From assembly GCA_043769985.1 (NCBI GenBank), contig JAYVIV010000136.1, forward strand, positions 5,802-69,801: 64,000 nucleotides of DNA, read 5' to 3'. A program made the position numbers and the translations under genes. Positions 788 through 60,686 of the stretch are shown here, in pieces (the stretch's first letter is position 1; every line of letters begins with the position of its first letter). The notes under the pieces were generated by a model, which saw nothing but the letters and a program-made list of their open reading frames with translations, was not told the DNA's origin and searched no databases. Source of the DNA: Arcicella sp. (GTDB lineage: Bacteria; Bacteroidota; Bacteroidia; Cytophagales; Spirosomataceae).

Positions 788-2215
788 ATGAAAGTAGAAC
801 AAATTTACACGGGCTGTTTGGCTCAGGGGGCATATTATATTGAGTCTGATGGAGAAGTTGCCATCATTGACCCATTGCGTGAAGTGAATTCGTATATCGA
901 AAAAGCCAAGCGAAATAATGCTACGATAAAGTACATTTTCGAGACTCATTTTCACGCTGATTTTGTGTCTGGGCATTTGGAATTATCCCACAAAACGAAC
1001 GCTCCAATCATCTATGGACCAAAGGCAAATCCTAAGTTTGAAGCAGTGATTGCCACTGATAATCAGGAGTTTAAGTTGGGAAATGTAACGATAAAAGTAT
1101 TACATACCCCTGGACATACGATGGAATCAAGTTGTTTTTTGTTGTTTGATGAGAACGGAAAAGCGACAAATCTTTTTTCGGGAGATACGCTTTTTATTGG
1201 TGACGTTGGTCGCCCAGATTTGGCACAAAATGGCTTGATGACGATGGAGGATTTGGCAGGGCATTTGTACGATTCTTTGCAAACCAAAATTATGCCTTTG
1301 GCGGATGATATCGTGGTCTATCCAGCACATGGGGCGGGTTCGGCTTGTGGAAAGAATATGTCGAAGGAAACTTCTGATACTTTGGGGCATCAGAAGCAAG
1401 TAAATTATGCGTTGCAACCACAAACGAAAGAGCAATTTATCGTTGCTGTTACGGAAGGTTTAACTCCACCGCCATTCTATTTTCCGAAGAATGTACAATT
1501 AAATAAGACTGGTAGTCAGGATGTTGAGAATGTAATGGAAAGAGGATTGACTTCACTCTCCCCTGATGAATTTGAGGATTTGGCTAATACGATTGACACT
1601 TTAGTGATTGATACCCGCAAGCCAGAAATATTTAGGGTAGGCTTTATTCCTCGGTCAATTTTTATTGGTATTGATGGTGATTTTGCCCCTTGGGTGGGTA
1701 CACTCGTAAGGGATATTCAGCAAGAAATCTTGATTGTGGCTGATGAAGGACGTGAGGAAGAAGTCATAAAACGCCTTGCAAGAGTGGGTTATGACAATGT
1801 TTTGGGTTATTTGAAAGGTGGTTTTGAGGCTTGGAAAATGGCAGGGAAAGAGATTGATGAAGTTGAGTCAATTACTGCTGATGAGTTTGCGGATATTTAT
1901 ATAGTGAACCAAAAGCGAATAGCCAACAGCGAACATCAAACATCGAAAACCGAAAATCAAATCAAAATAAAAGACGTAAGAAAAAGCACCGAATTTGAGA
2001 CTGGACACATCAAAGAAGCTGAGAATATTCCCTTAGCACAAATTTCTGAATTGATGGACGAGTTTGATAAAGAGGAGACCAATTACGTTCATTGTGCAGG
2101 GGGCTATCGTTCAATGGTTGCGTCAAGTATCTTAAAATCAAGGGGTTATGACAATATAGTAGATATTCAAGGAGGTTTTGGAGCGATTGCTGCTACTGGG
2201 ATTTTAACCCAGTAA
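788..2215 (+). CDS. MBL-fold metallo-hydrolase fused to rhodanese domains (ETHE1/CstB-like)
   Basis: ETHFHADF, HTPGHT, GDTLFIGDVGRPDL, C-terminal HCAGGYRS. Start moved from 683 to 788 (MKVEQIYTGCLAQ) because the upstream extension runs through a repeat. Confidence 0.88.
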   Translation: MKVEQIYTGCLAQGAYYIESDGEVAIIDPLREVNSYIEKAKRNNATIKYIFETHFHADFVSGHLELSHKTNAPIIYGPKANPKFEAVIATDNQEFKLGNVTIKVLHTPGHTMESSCFLLFDENGKATNLFSGDTLFIGDVGRPDLAQNGLMTMEDLAGHLYDSLQTKIMPLADDIVVYPAHGAGSACGKNMSKETSDTLGHQKQVNYALQPQTKEQFIVAVTEGLTPPPFYFPKNVQLNKTGSQDVENVMERGLTSLSPDEFEDLANTIDTLVIDTRKPEIFRVGFIPRSIFIGIDGDFAPWVGTLVRDIQQEILIVADEGREEEVIKRLARVGYDNVLGYLKGGFEAWKMAGKEIDEVESITADEFADIYIVNQKRIANSEHQTSKTENQIKIKDVRKSTEFETGHIKEAENIPLAQISELMDEFDKEETNYVHCAGGYRSMVASSILKSRGYDNIVDIQGGFGAIAATGILTQ

Positions 2216-3094: not shown

Positions 3095-3220
3095 TTGTCT
3101 GGGCGACCCCGTCTGAATTAGGATTCATTGGATTATAGGATTTTTAAGATTATTGACTTCAATAATTTCGACAAATTAATCTAAAAAATCCATTAATCTG
3201 ACGAATCCAAATTCAGACAG
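3095..3220. repeat. Inverted-repeat element family A (TCTGAATTTGGATTC...GAATCCAAATTCAGA), copy 1
   Basis: Imperfect terminal inverted repeats; overlaps the helicase stop codon. Confidence 0.85.
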
Positions 3221-6200
3221 GTTTCTTCCAAAAATTACGACTAAAAATTCTTTCAAATTTCCACCCTTTCGCTCGTAAACCCGCAGGAATGTAGGCGAAT
3301 GTTTCCTTCGGAGAAAGGTGTTCGTAATATAAATCATCATCCGTTAAGATTAATGATTCATAGTTTTTACTGTTTTTTACAGTTATGTCTGCAAATGGTA
3401 ACTCTTTGATATACGAGCCATGGTCAGACTGTGCGCCCCAGTGTTCCCCACCGACCACTCCATTAATTAATTGCTCCTTCAATAACCACTCTGCCTGATA
3501 ATTTTCTGAGCGGTGGGCTTGTGGTTTATAATTTCCTTCTGATACTTTTAGGGCATATTCCAAATAGCTTTTCAGTAATCTTGGACCTTCATTTTGTGCT
3601 TCTTCCACTCGTAATTGATTCGGCAAAATACTACTGATAATATATATTTTTTCTCTGGCACGGGTAATGGCCACATTCAAGCGATTTTCACCTCCTTGTC
3701 CATTCAAAGAACCAAATTGCATTGCCATTTTGCCTTTTGCATCGGGAGCATATCCGATGGAAAAGATGATAATATCTCGTTCATCGCCTTGCACATTTTC
3801 TATGTTTTTTACGAACAGCCCCCTAACCCCCGAAGGGGGAACTTGCTCGTCCGATTTGGACGTTAATTTTGTGTCGAAAGTTCCCCCTTCGGGGGTTAGG
3901 GGGCTGAGTAAATCTTGAATCAAACCTTGTTGTTTGAAGTTAAAAGTAACAATTCCGATTGATTTTTCGGGAGATGTTTGATGAATATTTTTCACTAAAT
4001 CAATGACCCTTTCTGCCTCAATTTGATTGGTGCTATTTTCCCAAATTCCATCCACTTTAAAATACTGAATAGCGGGTTTTTGAAGATTAATCTCTTGAAA
4101 ATCAGGCAATAACGATAAAGTATTTTTATAAAAATATTGATTAGAAAAATCAATTAGGTCTAAAGATTTGCTTCGATAATGACCTCGCAGTTGCGTTTGC
4201 GGTAAATATTGACAAGCTAAATCCAAGAGCGAATCTACTTCTAATTCAGGGTTGTCATCCGCATCGTTTTCAAACCTAACTCTGTACAAATCACTGGGTT
4301 GCAATTGTTTGGAATCACCCGCAATGACCACTTGCTTACCCCTGTATAATGCAGGAATACCTTGTTCAGCAAAACATTGTGAGGCTTCATCGAAAATGAC
4401 CAAATCGAAAATACCCGAAGCGTCGGTAGCCCCCTGCCCCCCTTCAAGGGGGCAAAGTGGAAAAATCGCAGAAACTGTTTCGGGAGAAGCCAACCAACAG
4501 GGAACAAGTTTAAACAATTCTTCCGAATATTCAGTAATTAATTTCCGAACTGACCACAATTTACGTTTTTTACCAACTTGATGCTTCAAATCACGATAAG
4601 TTATGGTATTTTGAAGTCGATTTTTTTCTAAATTTTGATACGTTAATTCTCGGAGTTTCAACAATAAAATCTCTTGACTTAGGGTTTGTTTTTTCTGAAC
4701 TGAATCCTGCAAATCAATTTCTAACTGATTCATTTTCAAAGAACTAACGCTTCTTAGAATTGGATATTTTTCTTCAATATTTTCAATCCAAGCTAATTTT
4801 AAACTGTTCATAAAATGGTCGGTGGGGACACTGACCATTACGGACAGAAGTCTTTTTTCAGGTAAAAACAATTCAATCATCGACCATTCTGTACGACTAA
4901 AAGATGCCCTCAATGAATCAGATTCTTGCATTAAATCGAAGTTTTCTTTTAGGTAAGAATTAATGTTTGATAAATCTCCCGTGGCTTGTCTGGGCGACCC
5001 CGTGTTCACAAGTCCACACGCAAGAATATCTATTTGATTTTTAGATAAATAATTATTCCAAACTGCCTGAATATCAATTAATTGCTGTGATTGTTGAATT
5101 AAGAAATTGATTTGTTTTTGGAAATCGTTCCATGTTGTTGTTCCCGTTGTTGTCTGTGTCTTCACAGACAACCCCATAGTCGTCTGTGAAGACACAGACA
5201 ACAACGGGTATGACGGCAATATTTTCGTCAACGGTTTCCATATTTTATTCGCTTTTTCGGCTTGATATAATTGTTGAAAATTACGTTCAAACCAACGATA
5301 TCCTTTACGTAGCCATATTGGATCTTCATTCCTATCCAATTCGCCAAATAAAAATCCCCATTCATTCCACCATTTTTCTAAGCCAATACGATTTTGGATT
5401 CTTTGTTGTAATTTCTGTAAATCTTCCAACGAAAGACTTAAGCCATTCGCCCTCGTAACATTCTGAATATTAGCTTTTTGATTTGAAAAAAAACGCCAAA
5501 CTAATCCACCAATAACATTCGACTTTGTGTCAATTGCTTCGTTTAACTTTGACAGAAAAGGTAATAAATGGGAACTTGGTAAGGTAATTTCAATCCCTTG
5601 ACCGGCAAAAAATTGAGCCACTTGTGCTTCTAATTCACCAATTTTTGTAGTATTGAGTTTAATCTTTTCTTGAATATTTCTACTAAAAACCTGATAAATT
5701 TTCTCATTTCCAATTAATGATAACAAATTCTGAAAACGTTCTTTTTCCCCTGAAATCTTTTCCAATTCTTGAAAATTTAAGATGTTTTTCAGAATTTCTG
5801 ATGATTCATTTTCAAGGTTTTGTACAAAATCGTGTACTTCTTGAACAACTTTCAAAATCTGTGAAATTTCTGAATATTGACGGTTTTGAAAAGAGAGGCG
5901 AGATTGCCAAAAAGAAGCCTCTGTGACTTGTCTGGGGGATTCCGTGTTCACCAATCCACTTTTTAATTTATTTTCATAAACGCAATATCTTTCAAATTTC
6001 TTCGAAAAATCATTTATCTCATTGAATTTGAAGTGTTTATAATCTTCTTTCAAATTCAAAAAAGGTTGATTTGGCGAACTTGTTAAGTATAATTCTTTTA
6101 CGGAAACACCGCATACTGAAACATCAAAAAGGGCATCTTTGAACTCTTGTAAAGTATCAGAAATTTTATCAATTTGACGGCTTTCTTGGGTAAAATTTCG

Positions 6201-7502
6201 TTCCAAAAAAATTGCATCAAGGCTCTGATTTTTCTTTTGATAATCTTCGATTTGTTCAATTTGATTCAAAATCTGAGCGTACAAAGTTTTACGGTCATTC
6301 TTGAAGTCATGTACATTGCCTACAAACGGTCGCATTCCTGCTCGTGTGAGGCGTTCCTGCACAACATCGAGGGCGGCTCGTTTTTGAGAAACGACCAAAA
6401 CTTTTTTACCACGAGCCGTAAAATCCGCAATAAGATTACAAATTAATTGAGATTTCCCCGTCCCAGGCGGTCCTTGAACTACCATCGAAGCTCCCGCTTT
6501 TATTTGTTGCAAAGCCAATTCTTGAGAAGCATCAACGGCAAAAGGGGTTAGGAGGTTTTCTTCACGGGGTTTAGGGATTGGGGGATTTAGGGGTTGGGGA
6601 TTGGGGAAAAGGGACTCTAATCCCTCTTTCTCAAATTTTCTATCAATATTTTCTAAGTTTTCTACGCTGTCTTCCGTCTTCTTTTCTCCTTTTTCCTTAC
6701 TGCTTTCCTCCAATAACTCCTCATAATCAGGCACTAAAAATGATCCTGCCTGTGGAAAAATTCCTAAGACTGCTTGGGGGTATAATTTTAATTCTCCATT
6801 GTTTTCAGAAAGGTCTAAATCTGATTTTAATTGTTTCTCAAAATGTTGTAACCCATTGACAAAAATCTCTTTATTGAAATCAATTTTTAAAGAAGAATCT
6901 TTCAAAAATTCGTATAATTGTGTTCTAAATTCAAGCGAATCTTTTGAAAAATCTTCAAAACTATGTTCTAAAAATTCATCCGAAATTTGGAGTTGATTGA
7001 AGTGTGAATAAGCTAAAAGGAAACTACGATTGAGAATAGCCCCCTGACCCCCAGAGGGGGAAGTAAAAACGTACTCGGAAACTCCCCCTCTGGGGGTTAG
7101 GGTGGCTATCGTTACAGGAAAAAATAATAAAGGACAACGCACAACCGTTCCGTCCGAAAACTTGCCTTTAATGATGGGATAACCCACATATAAATCTTCC
7201 GAACCACGTTCCTCTTCAATAAATTTTTCAGTCCTTGAAATCTTGCGTAAATACTTACTTACTTGATTTACTCGCTCATATCGTGGGTCGTGAATTTCAC
7301 AAAGAGAAATAGCATTTTTTTGAGCGATTAATTGCTCTATGATGTTAAATGAAGGTTTATTTTGTAAAAAATCAAGCTCGTGAATATCTAAAAACTGTTC
7401 AGCAGAGAGGTTTAATAACAACAAAGATTTATTCCTTGAGGTTAGATTGGTTAGTCTTTTTTGATATGATTTTAGGATTTTTTGTAATTTATTCTCTTGC
7501 AT
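3213..7502 (-). CDS. DUF4011 / superfamily-1 (UPF1/Dna2-like) helicase carrying multiple in-frame repeat insertions
   Basis: QGPPGTGKS, FDEASQ, GDSKQLQP, HYRS, ENVQGDERD, RLNVAITRAR. ORF is open from 7538; likely start MQENKL at 7502. Confidence 0.85.
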   Translation of the reverse strand: MQENKLQKILKSYQKRLTNLTSRNKSLLLLNLSAEQFLDIHELDFLQNKPSFNIIEQLIAQKNAISLCEIHDPRYERVNQVSKYLRKISRTEKFIEEERGSEDLYVGYPIIKGKFSDGTVVRCPLLFFPVTIATLTPRGGVSEYVFTSPSGGQGAILNRSFLLAYSHFNQLQISDEFLEHSFEDFSKDSLEFRTQLYEFLKDSSLKIDFNKEIFVNGLQHFEKQLKSDLDLSENNGELKLYPQAVLGIFPQAGSFLVPDYEELLEESSKEKGEKKTEDSVENLENIDRKFEKEGLESLFPNPQPLNPPIPKPREENLLTPFAVDASQELALQQIKAGASMVVQGPPGTGKSQLICNLIADFTARGKKVLVVSQKRAALDVVQERLTRAGMRPFVGNVHDFKNDRKTLYAQILNQIEQIEDYQKKNQSLDAIFLERNFTQESRQIDKISDTLQEFKDALFDVSVCGVSVKELYLTSSPNQPFLNLKEDYKHFKFNEINDFSKKFERYCVYENKLKSGLVNTESPRQVTEASFWQSRLSFQNRQYSEISQILKVVQEVHDFVQNLENESSEILKNILNFQELEKISGEKERFQNLLSLIGNEKIYQVFSRNIQEKIKLNTTKIGELEAQVAQFFAGQGIEITLPSSHLLPFLSKLNEAIDTKSNVIGGLVWRFFSNQKANIQNVTRANGLSLSLEDLQKLQQRIQNRIGLEKWWNEWGFLFGELDRNEDPIWLRKGYRWFERNFQQLYQAEKANKIWKPLTKILPSYPLLSVSSQTTMGLSVKTQTTTGTTTWNDFQKQINFLIQQSQQLIDIQAVWNNYLSKNQIDILACGLVNTGSPRQATGDLSNINSYLKENFDLMQESDSLRASFSRTEWSMIELFLPEKRLLSVMVSVPTDHFMNSLKLAWIENIEEKYPILRSVSSLKMNQLEIDLQDSVQKKQTLSQEILLLKLRELTYQNLEKNRLQNTITYRDLKHQVGKKRKLWSVRKLITEYSEELFKLVPCWLASPETVSAIFPLCPLEGGQGATDASGIFDLVIFDEASQCFAEQGIPALYRGKQVVIAGDSKQLQPSDLYRVRFENDADDNPELEVDSLLDLACQYLPQTQLRGHYRSKSLDLIDFSNQYFYKNTLSLLPDFQEINLQKPAIQYFKVDGIWENSTNQIEAERVIDLVKNIHQTSPEKSIGIVTFNFKQQGLIQDLLSPLTPEGGTFDTKLTSKSDEQVPPSGVRGLFVKNIENVQGDERDIIIFSIGYAPDAKGKMAMQFGSLNGQGGENRLNVAITRAREKIYIISSILPNQLRVEEAQNEGPRLLKSYLEYALKVSEGNYKPQAHRSENYQAEWLLKEQLINGVVGGEHWGAQSDHGSYIKELPFADITVKNSKNYESLILTDDDLYYEHLSPKETFAYIPAGLRAKGWKFERIFSRNFWKKPV
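3816..3906. repeat. C/G-rich inverted-repeat element (family B) inside the helicase CDS
   Basis: 28-bp perfect IR CAGCCCCCTAACCCCCGAAGGGGGAACT with a 35-bp spacer. Confidence 0.9.
5143..5208. repeat. REP-doublet-like element (family C, GTG-RRGA-CAC hairpin) inside the helicase CDS
   Basis: 27-bp perfect IR CCCGTTGTTGTCTGTGTCTTCACAGAC with a 12-bp spacer. Confidence 0.9.
7039..7106. repeat. Family B element inside the helicase CDS
   Basis: GCCCCCTGACCCCCAGAGGGGGAAGT...ACTCCCCCTCTGGGGGTTAGGGTGGC. Confidence 0.85.
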
Positions 7503-7642
7503 TTTTTTTGTTAATATCTGCGAAAGTAATAACAGCAAAGTCGCTATGACGCTAAGATAAGTATGACTATGGTAATTATTTCATTCACTTAAATTTTTTA
7601 AAATCTTAGCATCCTTGTAGCTTTGTAGTATCACAATTTATT

Positions 7643-58183: not shown

Positions 58184-58873
58184 TTACCCCCGCATAACCT
58201 CCTGTAAAATCCCCAACGACTTCACTTCTGTAAGCGTATCCACGTGCAAACAATAAAACAAAATGATTGAATCTAATAACTGATTTCTGGAAAAACGGTC
58301 AATTTTGGGGGCTTTGTCGTATTGCGTATTCATCAACACATCCAATTGATTTTCAAGAACTTGTGTTAAAGTTGGCAAGTTATGAAGACTCAATTCATGT
58401 GAAATTTCGTGGGCATTTTCGGGTGAAAAACCTAAATAGGTTCCAAATTCTAAGAGAAATTGTAAGTGGAAATTTTCGTAGTTTTCAGTAACGCCATCGA
58501 GCCAAAGAATAGAATTATTGAGGAAGTGAAAAAGGGGCGTATTTCCATTTTCTTCTTGTAATGATTTACTTAAAATTTCAGTAATGAATAAAGCAATCGA
58601 AGACTTCTGAATGTTGAAAGGAATGGTTTGAAAAGGAGCATTACATTTCATCTCCGAAATCCGATGAATGTTCTTTCCGTCTTTATGATAAATCACTAAA
58701 TCTAATAACGTAAGTGGCTGAAAAAGAGCGATTTTGTTCTTTGATTTGGCACTTCTGACACCGTTTTCGATATATGTCTGAATCCCAAACTCTTCGGTAT
58801 AAATCTTCACAATCACCGAGGTTTCTCGATAACGAATATAATTAATAACTATGCCACGAGTTTTGAATAACAT
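58184..58873 (-). CDS. recO: DNA repair protein RecO
   Basis: KTRGIVI, YRETSVIVKIYTEEFG, FQPL, KSLGILQEV. Confidence 0.92.
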   Translation of the reverse strand: MLFKTRGIVINYIRYRETSVIVKIYTEEFGIQTYIENGVRSAKSKNKIALFQPLTLLDLVIYHKDGKNIHRISEMKCNAPFQTIPFNIQKSSIALFITEILSKSLQEENGNTPLFHFLNNSILWLDGVTENYENFHLQFLLEFGTYLGFSPENAHEISHELSLHNLPTLTQVLENQLDVLMNTQYDKAPKIDRFSRNQLLDSIILFYCLHVDTLTEVKSLGILQEVMRG

Positions 58874-58877
58874 TTTA

Positions 58878-59018
58878 TTTCGATGTTGGATGTTCGTTTT
58901 CCGATGTTTGGTTTTCGAGTATAATTAACATCAAACGTCAAAAAAACTATCTTCAATTTTTGCAGTTTATTTTCCGAGTAACGAACATCTAACATCGAAA
59001 ACCGAACCGAAGCGTCGG
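58878..59018. repeat. Inverted heptamer array (CGAACAT/AACATCG) between plsC-like and recO
   Basis: CGATGTTGGATGTTCG... arm and the ...CGAACATCTAACATCG arm. Confidence 0.8.
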
Positions 59019-59023
59019 ACGCA

Positions 59024-59827
59024 TCAAATTTCTCTCTTCCAAGTCCATTTTTCTACTGGAATATTTTGTTCGATTTTGTCTCTTAAAATCTCCATAATCT
59101 CTTCCACAGGCATTTCTGGGTCGAAGCGGATTGGTTCTTTGAAATTTACCGTTAATGTGGTATTCGCCTTTTTGAAGCGTAATCCTTTCTTATCAAACGC
59201 CCGCCTAAAACCATTTATTACTACGGGTACAACTATTGGATTATGGGTTTTTATTAAATGTGCCGTTCCTTTACGTAGTGGTGCATAAGGCGTTGTTGTG
59301 CCTTGCGGGAAACTTACCACCCAACCATAAGAAAGTCCTTTTCCCACTTTGTCATCCGCCGAAGAATCAACTGCCCTTTTCACATCTTTACCCTCCGCAC
59401 GCCATGAACGATTCACTAAAATTGCTCCTGCCTGAGAAAAAATCCTTGGAATCAATCCTCCTTCTTTCATTGTTTCGGAAGCTGCCACATAAAAAACCCT
59501 CGAACGTGGAGCCAACAAATAAATTGGAAAATTAACTGAATTCCTAAATCCCCATTTGATACTGAAAAAGATGTGATATAGGGCAATCACATCCATAAAA
59601 TAAGTCTGATGATTAGATAAAAACAACACTCCCGTGCGTGGAAGTCCTTCCAAATGCTCTGTTCCGCTGATTTGCGTTTTGTTAACGCCTCGCAATCGGG
59701 TATAAGTCAACACTCCCAAAATCATCACAATAGCTCTCTTCAAAAGCATCGAATTGCCGAAGGGATCCCGTTCAAAGATTCCAAAGACATCAGCCATGGA
59801 GAGCAATTTTTTTAATACTGAATTCAT
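59024..59827 (-). CDS. Lysophospholipid acyltransferase (PlsC family)
   Basis: SNHQTYFMD (HxxxxD), FPQGT, IVPV. Confidence 0.85.
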   Translation of the reverse strand: MNSVLKKLLSMADVFGIFERDPFGNSMLLKRAIVMILGVLTYTRLRGVNKTQISGTEHLEGLPRTGVLFLSNHQTYFMDVIALYHIFFSIKWGFRNSVNFPIYLLAPRSRVFYVAASETMKEGGLIPRIFSQAGAILVNRSWRAEGKDVKRAVDSSADDKVGKGLSYGWVVSFPQGTTTPYAPLRKGTAHLIKTHNPIVVPVVINGFRRAFDKKGLRFKKANTTLTVNFKEPIRFDPEMPVEEIMEILRDKIEQNIPVEKWTWKREI

Positions 59828-60035
59828 GTTTTACGCAATGAGTGAATGATATAATGAGCGAATGATTGAATATTTTCAGAAGTAAAGTTCCCTGCACTTC
59901 AATTTTCAGTTCAATCGTTTCTCAAAAATACTCACTCATTCTATCATTCTATCATTCTATCATTGTTTTTTCTATCATTCTATCATTGTTTTTTCGTAAT
60001 TTCATTCATTTCTTTCATTACAAAACCGTCTAAAA

Positions 60036-60686
60036 ATGAAAAAAAATACGCTTTTAATCTTATTTTCTTGCCTGATTTTTAAAGGATTAGCTCAAAAAAT
60101 CATTGACCGACCCATCATTTATGACTCTACTCGAAAAGCACTTTCCATTCAATATCTTAAAGAAAGACACGGCTTAGAACAATCTGAGCCTACACTTACA
60201 CCAAAAATGATTGTTTCTCATTGGACGGCAATTCCCACGCTCGAAGGTTCATTCAATGCTTTTAATTCCGTGATGTTGCCTTCGTATCGGAAGGAATTAA
60301 AGGGAGTAAGTCCACTTAATGTTTCGGTTCATTTTTTGGTTGATAGAGACGGAACGATATACCGATTGATGCCCGAAAATCTTATGGCTCGTCACGTCAT
60401 TGGACTCAATTGGTGTGCTTTGGGTATTGAAAACGTAGGAGATGGCAATAAATTTCCCTTAACCAAAGCCCAATTGAAAGCGAATATTTGGCTCGTGAAA
60501 TATCTGAAAAAGAAATATACTAACATTGAATATTTGATTGGACATCATGAATATACTTCATTTCAAAATACACTACTGTGGAAAGAATCTAACCCAAATT
60601 ACAGAACCGAAAAAGACGACCCTGGCATAGATTTTATGAATAAATTGAGAAAAGGAGTTAAGAAATTAAACTTGCAGGGTATTTAG
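60036..60686 (+). CDS. N-acetylmuramoyl-L-alanine amidase (Amidase_2)
   Basis: IVSHWT, VSVHFLVDRDG, ARH, GIEN, IGHHE, DDPG. Confidence 0.85.
   Translation: MKKNTLLILFSCLIFKGLAQKIIDRPIIYDSTRKALSIQYLKERHGLEQSEPTLTPKMIVSHWTAIPTLEGSFNAFNSVMLPSYRKELKGVSPLNVSVHFLVDRDGTIYRLMPENLMARHVIGLNWCALGIENVGDGNKFPLTKAQLKANIWLVKYLKKKYTNIEYLIGHHEYTSFQNTLLWKESNPNYRTEKDDPGIDFMNKLRKGVKKLNLQGI

Follow-up and report, generated by a model that had tools for sequence, protein, structure and literature searches.

A 66-nt segment within the gene for an MBL-fold hydrolase with two rhodanese domains is, in all likelihood, in-frame DNA of a heptamer repeat family whose sites are mostly intergenic. We consider it probable to a high degree that this DNA reached a linker of the enzyme in one seeding event, turned over in place, spread by recombination and persisted as a tolerated passenger. 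All positions refer to the window, i.e. the complete 64,000-nt stretch of DNA that was analysed, and the host is a freshwater Arcicella with a genome of 5.16 Mb in 302 contigs and a G+C content of 35.8%. The locus offers an internally controlled case of intergenic repeat DNA translated inside a conserved enzyme, and close relatives supply insert-free alleles as well as insert-bearing ones, the latter with 2–8 units.

A replaced linker segment in 7-nt register

Pfam assigned residues 14–178 of the 475-aa protein to Lactamase_B and recognized two rhodanese stretches, the best of them at residues 389–468. In total 8000 homologues were retrieved, and close relatives share 76–92% identity with the protein and belong to Arcicella according to their source names. 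An alignment of 36 homologues distinguished the common linker form, ...EFADIYRKDNHLTIKDVRK, from that in the Arcicella genome studied, ...EFADIYIVNQKRIANSEHQTSKTENQIKIKDVRK. In the DNA of 26 orthologous loci, the baseline allele reads TAC CGAAAAGACAATCATTTAACG ATAAAAGAC at the linker, and its 21 nt CGAAAAGACAATCATTTAACG (RKDNHLT) are replaced by 66 nt, which lengthens the gene by 45 nt and the protein by 15 aa. The latter value falls within the gap of 15–20 aa before the DVR motif that the earlier note, made from the sequence of the window, had predicted for orthologues. That note had also placed the insert in the second rhodanese domain; the segment does occupy the N-terminal edge of this domain, but it is not deep inside, as the insert covers residues 372–393 and residue 389 is the first in the Pfam match.

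Table 1. Positions of the insert, its host gene and the intergenic array within the window
Feature	Position	Strand	Basis
MBL-fold hydrolase with two rhodanese domains, insert host, 475 aa	788..2215	+	ORF and translation
Lineage-specific replacement segment, 66 nt, residues I372-K393 (22 aa)	1901..1966	+	protein alignment and orthologous DNA
Heptamer array proper, 7 in-register units, single arm, sense orientation	1916..1964	+	right-anchored heptamer register
25-mer CGAACATCAAACATCGAAAACCGAA	1930..1954	+	exact site
recO ORF, RecO_N/RecO_C	58184-58873	-	ORF and domains
Array arm reading CTCGAAAACCAAACATCGGAAAACGAACATCCAACATCGA on the minus strand	58878..58919	-	sequence and inverted-repeat pairs
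Partner arm with the 24/25 match, 17 nt from the acyltransferase stop	58980..59007	+	sequence, inverted-repeat pairs
Acyltransferase gene, stop 59024-59026	59024-59827	-	ORF

The units of the array are, in order, CGAATAG, CCAACAG, CGAACAT, CAAACAT, CGAAAAC, CGAAAAT and CAAATCA, and Tandem Repeats Finder (TRF) reported a tandem-repeat row at 1910–1947 within the insert. The register is 7 nt rather than 3 nt, and the central units CGAACAT, CAAACAT, CGAAAAC and CGAAAAT rank first, second, sixth and third in frequency in the genome-wide family. In the allele of the genome studied, no two neighbouring units are identical. An inverted-repeat search over positions 1860–2010 found no inverted partner of the coding array, and the coding copy shows no stable fold (z = −0.23). 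The junctions of the alleles revealed neither a target-site duplication nor conserved termini, native nucleotides being replaced and not duplicated. There is no palindrome, and the number of units, which varies among alleles (2–8), does not fit an element of fixed length bounded by terminal inverted repeats. No start codon lies downstream of the coding array, which rules out an internal translation start after it.

In an AF2 model of moderate quality (mean pLDDT 75.7, pTM 0.67), residues 364–380 form a helix, followed by a coil at 381–392 (mean pLDDT ~53) and a strand at 393–396. According to this model, the insert would add length to the helix and to the linker at the N-terminal boundary of the rhodanese domain, and its predicted surface-loop position fits the fold. 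Arrays of CGAACAT, CGAAAAT and CGAAAAC are free of stop codons in every sense frame. Considering that three units of 7 nt equal seven codons, the peptide period is identical in all frames, each sense frame yielding one hydrophilic 7-residue period (EHRTSNI / ENRKSKI); with equivalent, stop-free frames, the total length alone must be a multiple of three. The array may thus be tolerated because the linker is a poorly ordered surface segment and the sense frames are open. Between loci L001 and L002, the insert peptide is identical at 15 of 22 residues, compared to 91% for the whole protein, and this faster divergence points to relaxed constraint. We infer that the insert is probably a passenger that contributes nothing of its own to the enzyme, its neutrality being judged from divergence only.

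The heptamer family and the match at 58 kb

The genome contains 776 period-7 tandem arrays, as against 131 in a shuffled copy. A register-aware genome scan for CGAA[A/C]A[T/C] identified 94 family arms of at least 3 units. Within 200 nt, 19 inverted pairs occur in the order (ATGTTCG)n ... (CGAACAT)n and none in the opposite order; 58 of the 94 arms are unpaired, so that inverted pairing, though characteristic of the family, is not required of its members. Seventeen arms terminate between −8 and +3 nt from an ATG in sense orientation (flipped control, 2), counting only ATGs that open ORFs of ≥100 aa. Over all period-7 arrays, 32 of 409 lie within ORFs compared to 68% of random sites, an 8-fold depletion, and only three family arms are gene-internal, namely those in the MBL/rhodanese gene, in a 1210-aa protein on contig C100 and in a SAM methyltransferase on contig C103. 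TAACTGA-type arrays, of which the genome holds 19, are separate from the CGAACAT family. The possibility that the arms are the ends of gene cassettes found no support, as no inverted pair of the CGAACAT family encloses a small ORF and the sole far pair spans an ordinary 483-aa gene.

Counts of pattern matches ranged from 20 to 120 per genome in 13 genomes of the genus, and six other genomes of the genus had none. Sixteen other genera of the order gave 0–3 matches, not above the control in which the pattern was read backwards; one genome (G027) had 3 matches, and its backwards-read control 15 and 11. By these pattern counts, the CGAACAT family is restricted to one subclade of the genus.

Two further kinds of repeat were observed. 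Arrays of 8-nt units (ATTCAATC / TCATTCTA type) are present at 747–781 and 59936–60010; the first immediately precedes the ATG of the MBL/rhodanese gene (788) and the second that of an ORF beginning at 60036, so that a second repeat family likewise abuts start codons. An element of ~115 nt, with the ends TAAGTAGT ... ACTACTTA, occurs in 18 copies (e.g. C34:13213, C186:8488, C259:3982); it carries 2–3 CGAA-type heptamers near its 3' end, one CGAACAT unit being present or absent between copies, and could represent a MITE or encode a small RNA.

The recO spacer provides one example of arms adjoining a start codon. It extends over 150 nt from the recO start (58873) to the acyltransferase stop (59024) and houses an inverted array, the minus-strand arm of which terminates 4–6 nt upstream of the recO ATG (58873–58871). 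The arms at 58878–58898 and 58980–59000 are 95% complementary, and the whole spacer is predicted to fold into a hairpin of −28.5 kcal/mol (z = −4.35), with equal stability reached in 0 of 200 shuffles; the description of the second site as one arm of an intergenic inverted heptamer array, given in the earlier note, was therefore correct. The two copies differ in form, the intergenic copy at 58 kb being an inverted pair that folds and the coding copy a single arm that does not. A palindrome, GCGTCGGACGC, at 59012–59022 separates the array arm from the acyltransferase stop, and on contig C233 a family array is flanked by the same motif.

The match that had linked the two places, 24 of 25 nt between CGAACATCAAACATCGAAAACCGAA and CGAACATCTAACATCGAAAACCGAA at 58982–59006 (+), was reproduced; the corresponding peptide in the MBL/rhodanese ORF is RIANSEHQTSKTENQ. 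Besides 58982–59006, the window has no site within 3 mismatches of the 25-mer, and none of 100 dinucleotide-preserving shuffles gave such a match. A chance resemblance owing to low complexity, which the earlier note had considered, is contradicted by these shuffles and by the 7-nt register. The register and the use of the commonest units of the family indicate that one kind of DNA makes up both the coding insert and the intergenic arrays, as the note had proposed.

Across the genome, the 25-mer has 6 matches at ≤1 mismatch and 118 at ≤5. Better partners of the insert were found on other contigs: C162 (34/38 and 27/29), C105 (33/38), C180 (30/33) and C157 (29/32). When the units of the family were shuffled among arms, a match with at most one mismatch arose somewhere in 62% of trials (P = 0.62). 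Because a near-match is to be expected among family members, the 24/25 identity is silent about the donor; it proves membership of the family and not a donor relation. The copy at 58 kb was thus rejected as the donor, as five other arms match the insert equally well or better. The number of matches with at most one mismatch, 4 as compared to a mean of 0.92 with shuffled unit order (P = 0.011), suggests that blocks of several units have been copied between loci.

History of the site and competing explanations

Among homologues of at least 76% identity, 58 of 72 have the short linker and 14 carry some insert at exactly the MBL/rhodanese site, and 40 of 40 scorable homologues at greater distance have the short linker. 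The peptide is therefore not a common property of the orthologues; its presence in them was one of the conditions that the earlier note had named as speaking against its reading. As the short linker is found in all outgroup genera, gain of the insert is the parsimonious direction. Species representatives of the genus with an insert are G000, G005 and G015 only. An identical variant is present in the independent assemblies G005, P0002 and P0004, and thus is no assembly artefact.

Close relatives have at least 10 different insert forms at the linker. At the DNA level, eight insert-bearing alleles fall into three states: array only (L021), hairpin only (L022, with the short hairpin GTTGTCTGTGGGGACACAGACAAC and the native NHL(M/T) codons retained) and hairpin plus array (L010 and L023–L026). 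The hairpin GTTGTCTGTGGGGACACAGACAAC, with a GTG-GGGA-CAC head and the peptide VVCGDTDN, occupies the linker in L022, L025 and L023, once as a doublet. In the genome studied, 0 of 31 GTG-GGGA-CAC hairpins lie within 80 nt of a family arm. This rules out a composite element of hairpin and array and implies that two separate families made independent use of one permissive site. A longer form of the hairpin seen in relatives, VVGGEHWDAQSDNG, resembles VVGGEHWGAQSDHG in the helicase ORF of the window (3213–7538).

All array-bearing alleles have the right junction C[G/A]AATCA|AAATAAAAGAC in common. On a protein tree with the insert masked, 3–5 changes of state are required. The genes L010 (from G015) and L021, which stand outside the main clade, are mosaic and resemble that clade only in their 3' parts, over 200–600 nt around the insert, indicating homologous recombination between species. 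Despite the 3–5 changes on the tree, the common right junction and the mosaic alleles disfavour independent recurrent insertion. Recombination would account for these changes of state, with support in two alleles (L010 and L021).

The common right junction in alleles of variable unit number, together with the mosaic alleles, argues for a single seeding followed by turnover and recombination. One ancestral seeding event would have placed family DNA at a codon of the linker, where the native heptamer CGAAAAG, at this one site, may have provided microhomology. The array would then have turned over in place through gain and loss of units and point changes, with selection retaining only lengths in multiples of three, and the insert allele would have moved between species via homologous recombination. 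No frameshifted allele was seen among the alleles, which were retrieved as full-length proteins and thus form a biased sample.

Alternatively, replication slippage starting from the native CGAAAAG...AATCAT could have generated the array de novo without any outside DNA, with a genome-wide mutational or repair bias writing alike heptamers everywhere and hence producing the likeness to the intergenic arrays. In the baseline allele of the insert-carrying clade, CGAAAAG (codons Arg-Lys, 6/7 of a family unit) lies exactly at the left junction, where the insert-free sister clade has AAACGT; the unit number varies among alleles, the gene-specific unit CGAATAG stands twice in tandem in L002, and the methyltransferase site on C103, with heptamer families differing per species, suggests turnover in place. 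However, a single near-unit is not a tandem repeat and hence offers slippage no starting substrate, multi-unit blocks of the insert match other loci at 34/38 with a unit order common beyond random draw, and no known process writes CGAACAT specifically, so that we regard this origin as unlikely. The probability that we are dealing with a mere likeness of A-rich low-complexity coding DNA, or with an ancestral segment lost elsewhere, is close to negligible: a genome of 36% G+C and a low-complexity peptide would make it conceivable, but the idea was tested and rejected on the shuffles (0/100), the 7-nt register and the outgroup genera, all of which have the short linker and make gain parsimonious.

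The persistence of the array could also have a functional cause, the insert serving as a hypervariable enzyme loop under selection or, in the nucleic acid, as an RNA or ssDNA site for a presumed factor that acts on start-codon arrays. The diversity of forms at the linker, the CGAA core in all alleles and the 17/94 arms near an ATG (2 in the flipped control), which make a leader function of the family possible, fit this explanation; yet most relatives do well without the insert, the sequence inside it evolves more quickly than the protein, the array in this gene is not followed by a start codon, and the depletion of arrays in ORFs is what one expects if they are mostly harmful there. We find a function of the insert highly improbable. 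The profile in which the CGAA core is retained in all alleles is partly circular, as units were picked by pattern, and this retention could reflect continuing constraint or conversion instead of free drift.

A broader scheme, which we put forward as a speculation and consider rather doubtful, is that arrays are kept uniform by an active process recognizing the CGAA core, for example conversion among the arrays or the action of a factor able to bind or write units of 7 nt. The A-rich mRNA arm would act as a leader abutting start codons in a lineage without Shine–Dalgarno sites, and the process would repeatedly rework permissive loops, such as the rhodanese linker and the C103 methyltransferase, with hypervariable peptide loops as a by-product.

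Known repeat systems and other coding sites

Repeat DNA inserted in frame in unrelated housekeeping genes is described for the Rickettsia palindromic elements (RPEs; Ogata et al. 2000, 2002), which, as summarized in PMC10969869, are palindromic, have a fixed length of ~150 bp and specify a conserved peptide. The Arcicella insert is alike in that intergenic repeat DNA is read in frame at a position compatible with the fold and is missing from orthologues (+45 nt here), and it differs in being a variable 7-nt tandem array (2–8 units), a single non-folding arm without defined termini. The RPEs are the closest analogue in effect. Coding repeats of the Rickettsia type are known for fixed palindromic elements; the material here is a family of tandem heptamers of the TAACTGA/STRR kind.

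Cyanobacterial STRR heptamers are related to the TAACTGA repeats, and to our knowledge the origin and function of heptamer arrays of this kind are still unexplained. TAACTGA direct repeats are reported in Beggiatoaceae, Cyanobacteria and five Bacteroidetes (MacGregor 2015, PMC4679880); they are mostly intergenic, forward, positioned a few nucleotides from start codons, variable in length by 7-nt steps and rare in ORFs (PMC4679880). The CGAACAT family shares with them the tandem arrangement, the mostly intergenic location and the adjoining of start codons in sense orientation (17/94). It differs from the TAACTGA/STRR repeats in its unit, CGAACAT and variants, and in forming inverted pairs that all have one polarity (19 versus 0). 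For the coding copy, a lineage-specific in-frame insertion is demonstrated, whereas the passages of PMC4679880 consulted contain no such report. Of the known systems compared, the TAACTGA/STRR repeats are the most similar to the CGAACAT family in sequence organization and intergenic placement. Searches of the literature found no published work on Arcicella repeats, and those on STRR returned unrelated papers only.

Simple-sequence contingency loci are phase-variable repeat tracts inside ORFs. The array resembles them in having, within an ORF, a unit that is not a multiple of three, so that adding or removing a single unit would cause a frameshift; it differs in that its units are imperfect and that only in-frame alleles were seen among full-length proteins, which are a biased sample. 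The finding joins two puzzles, the nature of heptamer arrays and the gain of new loops by proteins. It also carries a warning for annotation, as low-complexity segments of Arcicella proteins may derive from repeat DNA instead of being native.

The SAM methyltransferase on contig C103 (16374–17099, locus L027) contains a full inverted heptamer array in frame, giving the peptides MFDVRSSMFDV / QTTKIENRKSKIEI directly before the motif DLGCGGGD. At the same codon position, relatives have other heptamer families (CCCCAAT, CAATCAC, AACTCAA and AAAATCA), and the occurrence of different families in different species suggests a second permissive site with fast turnover in place. On contig C100, four family units at 1356–1383 read HQIPNIENRKT inside the 1210-aa protein, which has further low-complexity and Gly/Pro-rich segments.
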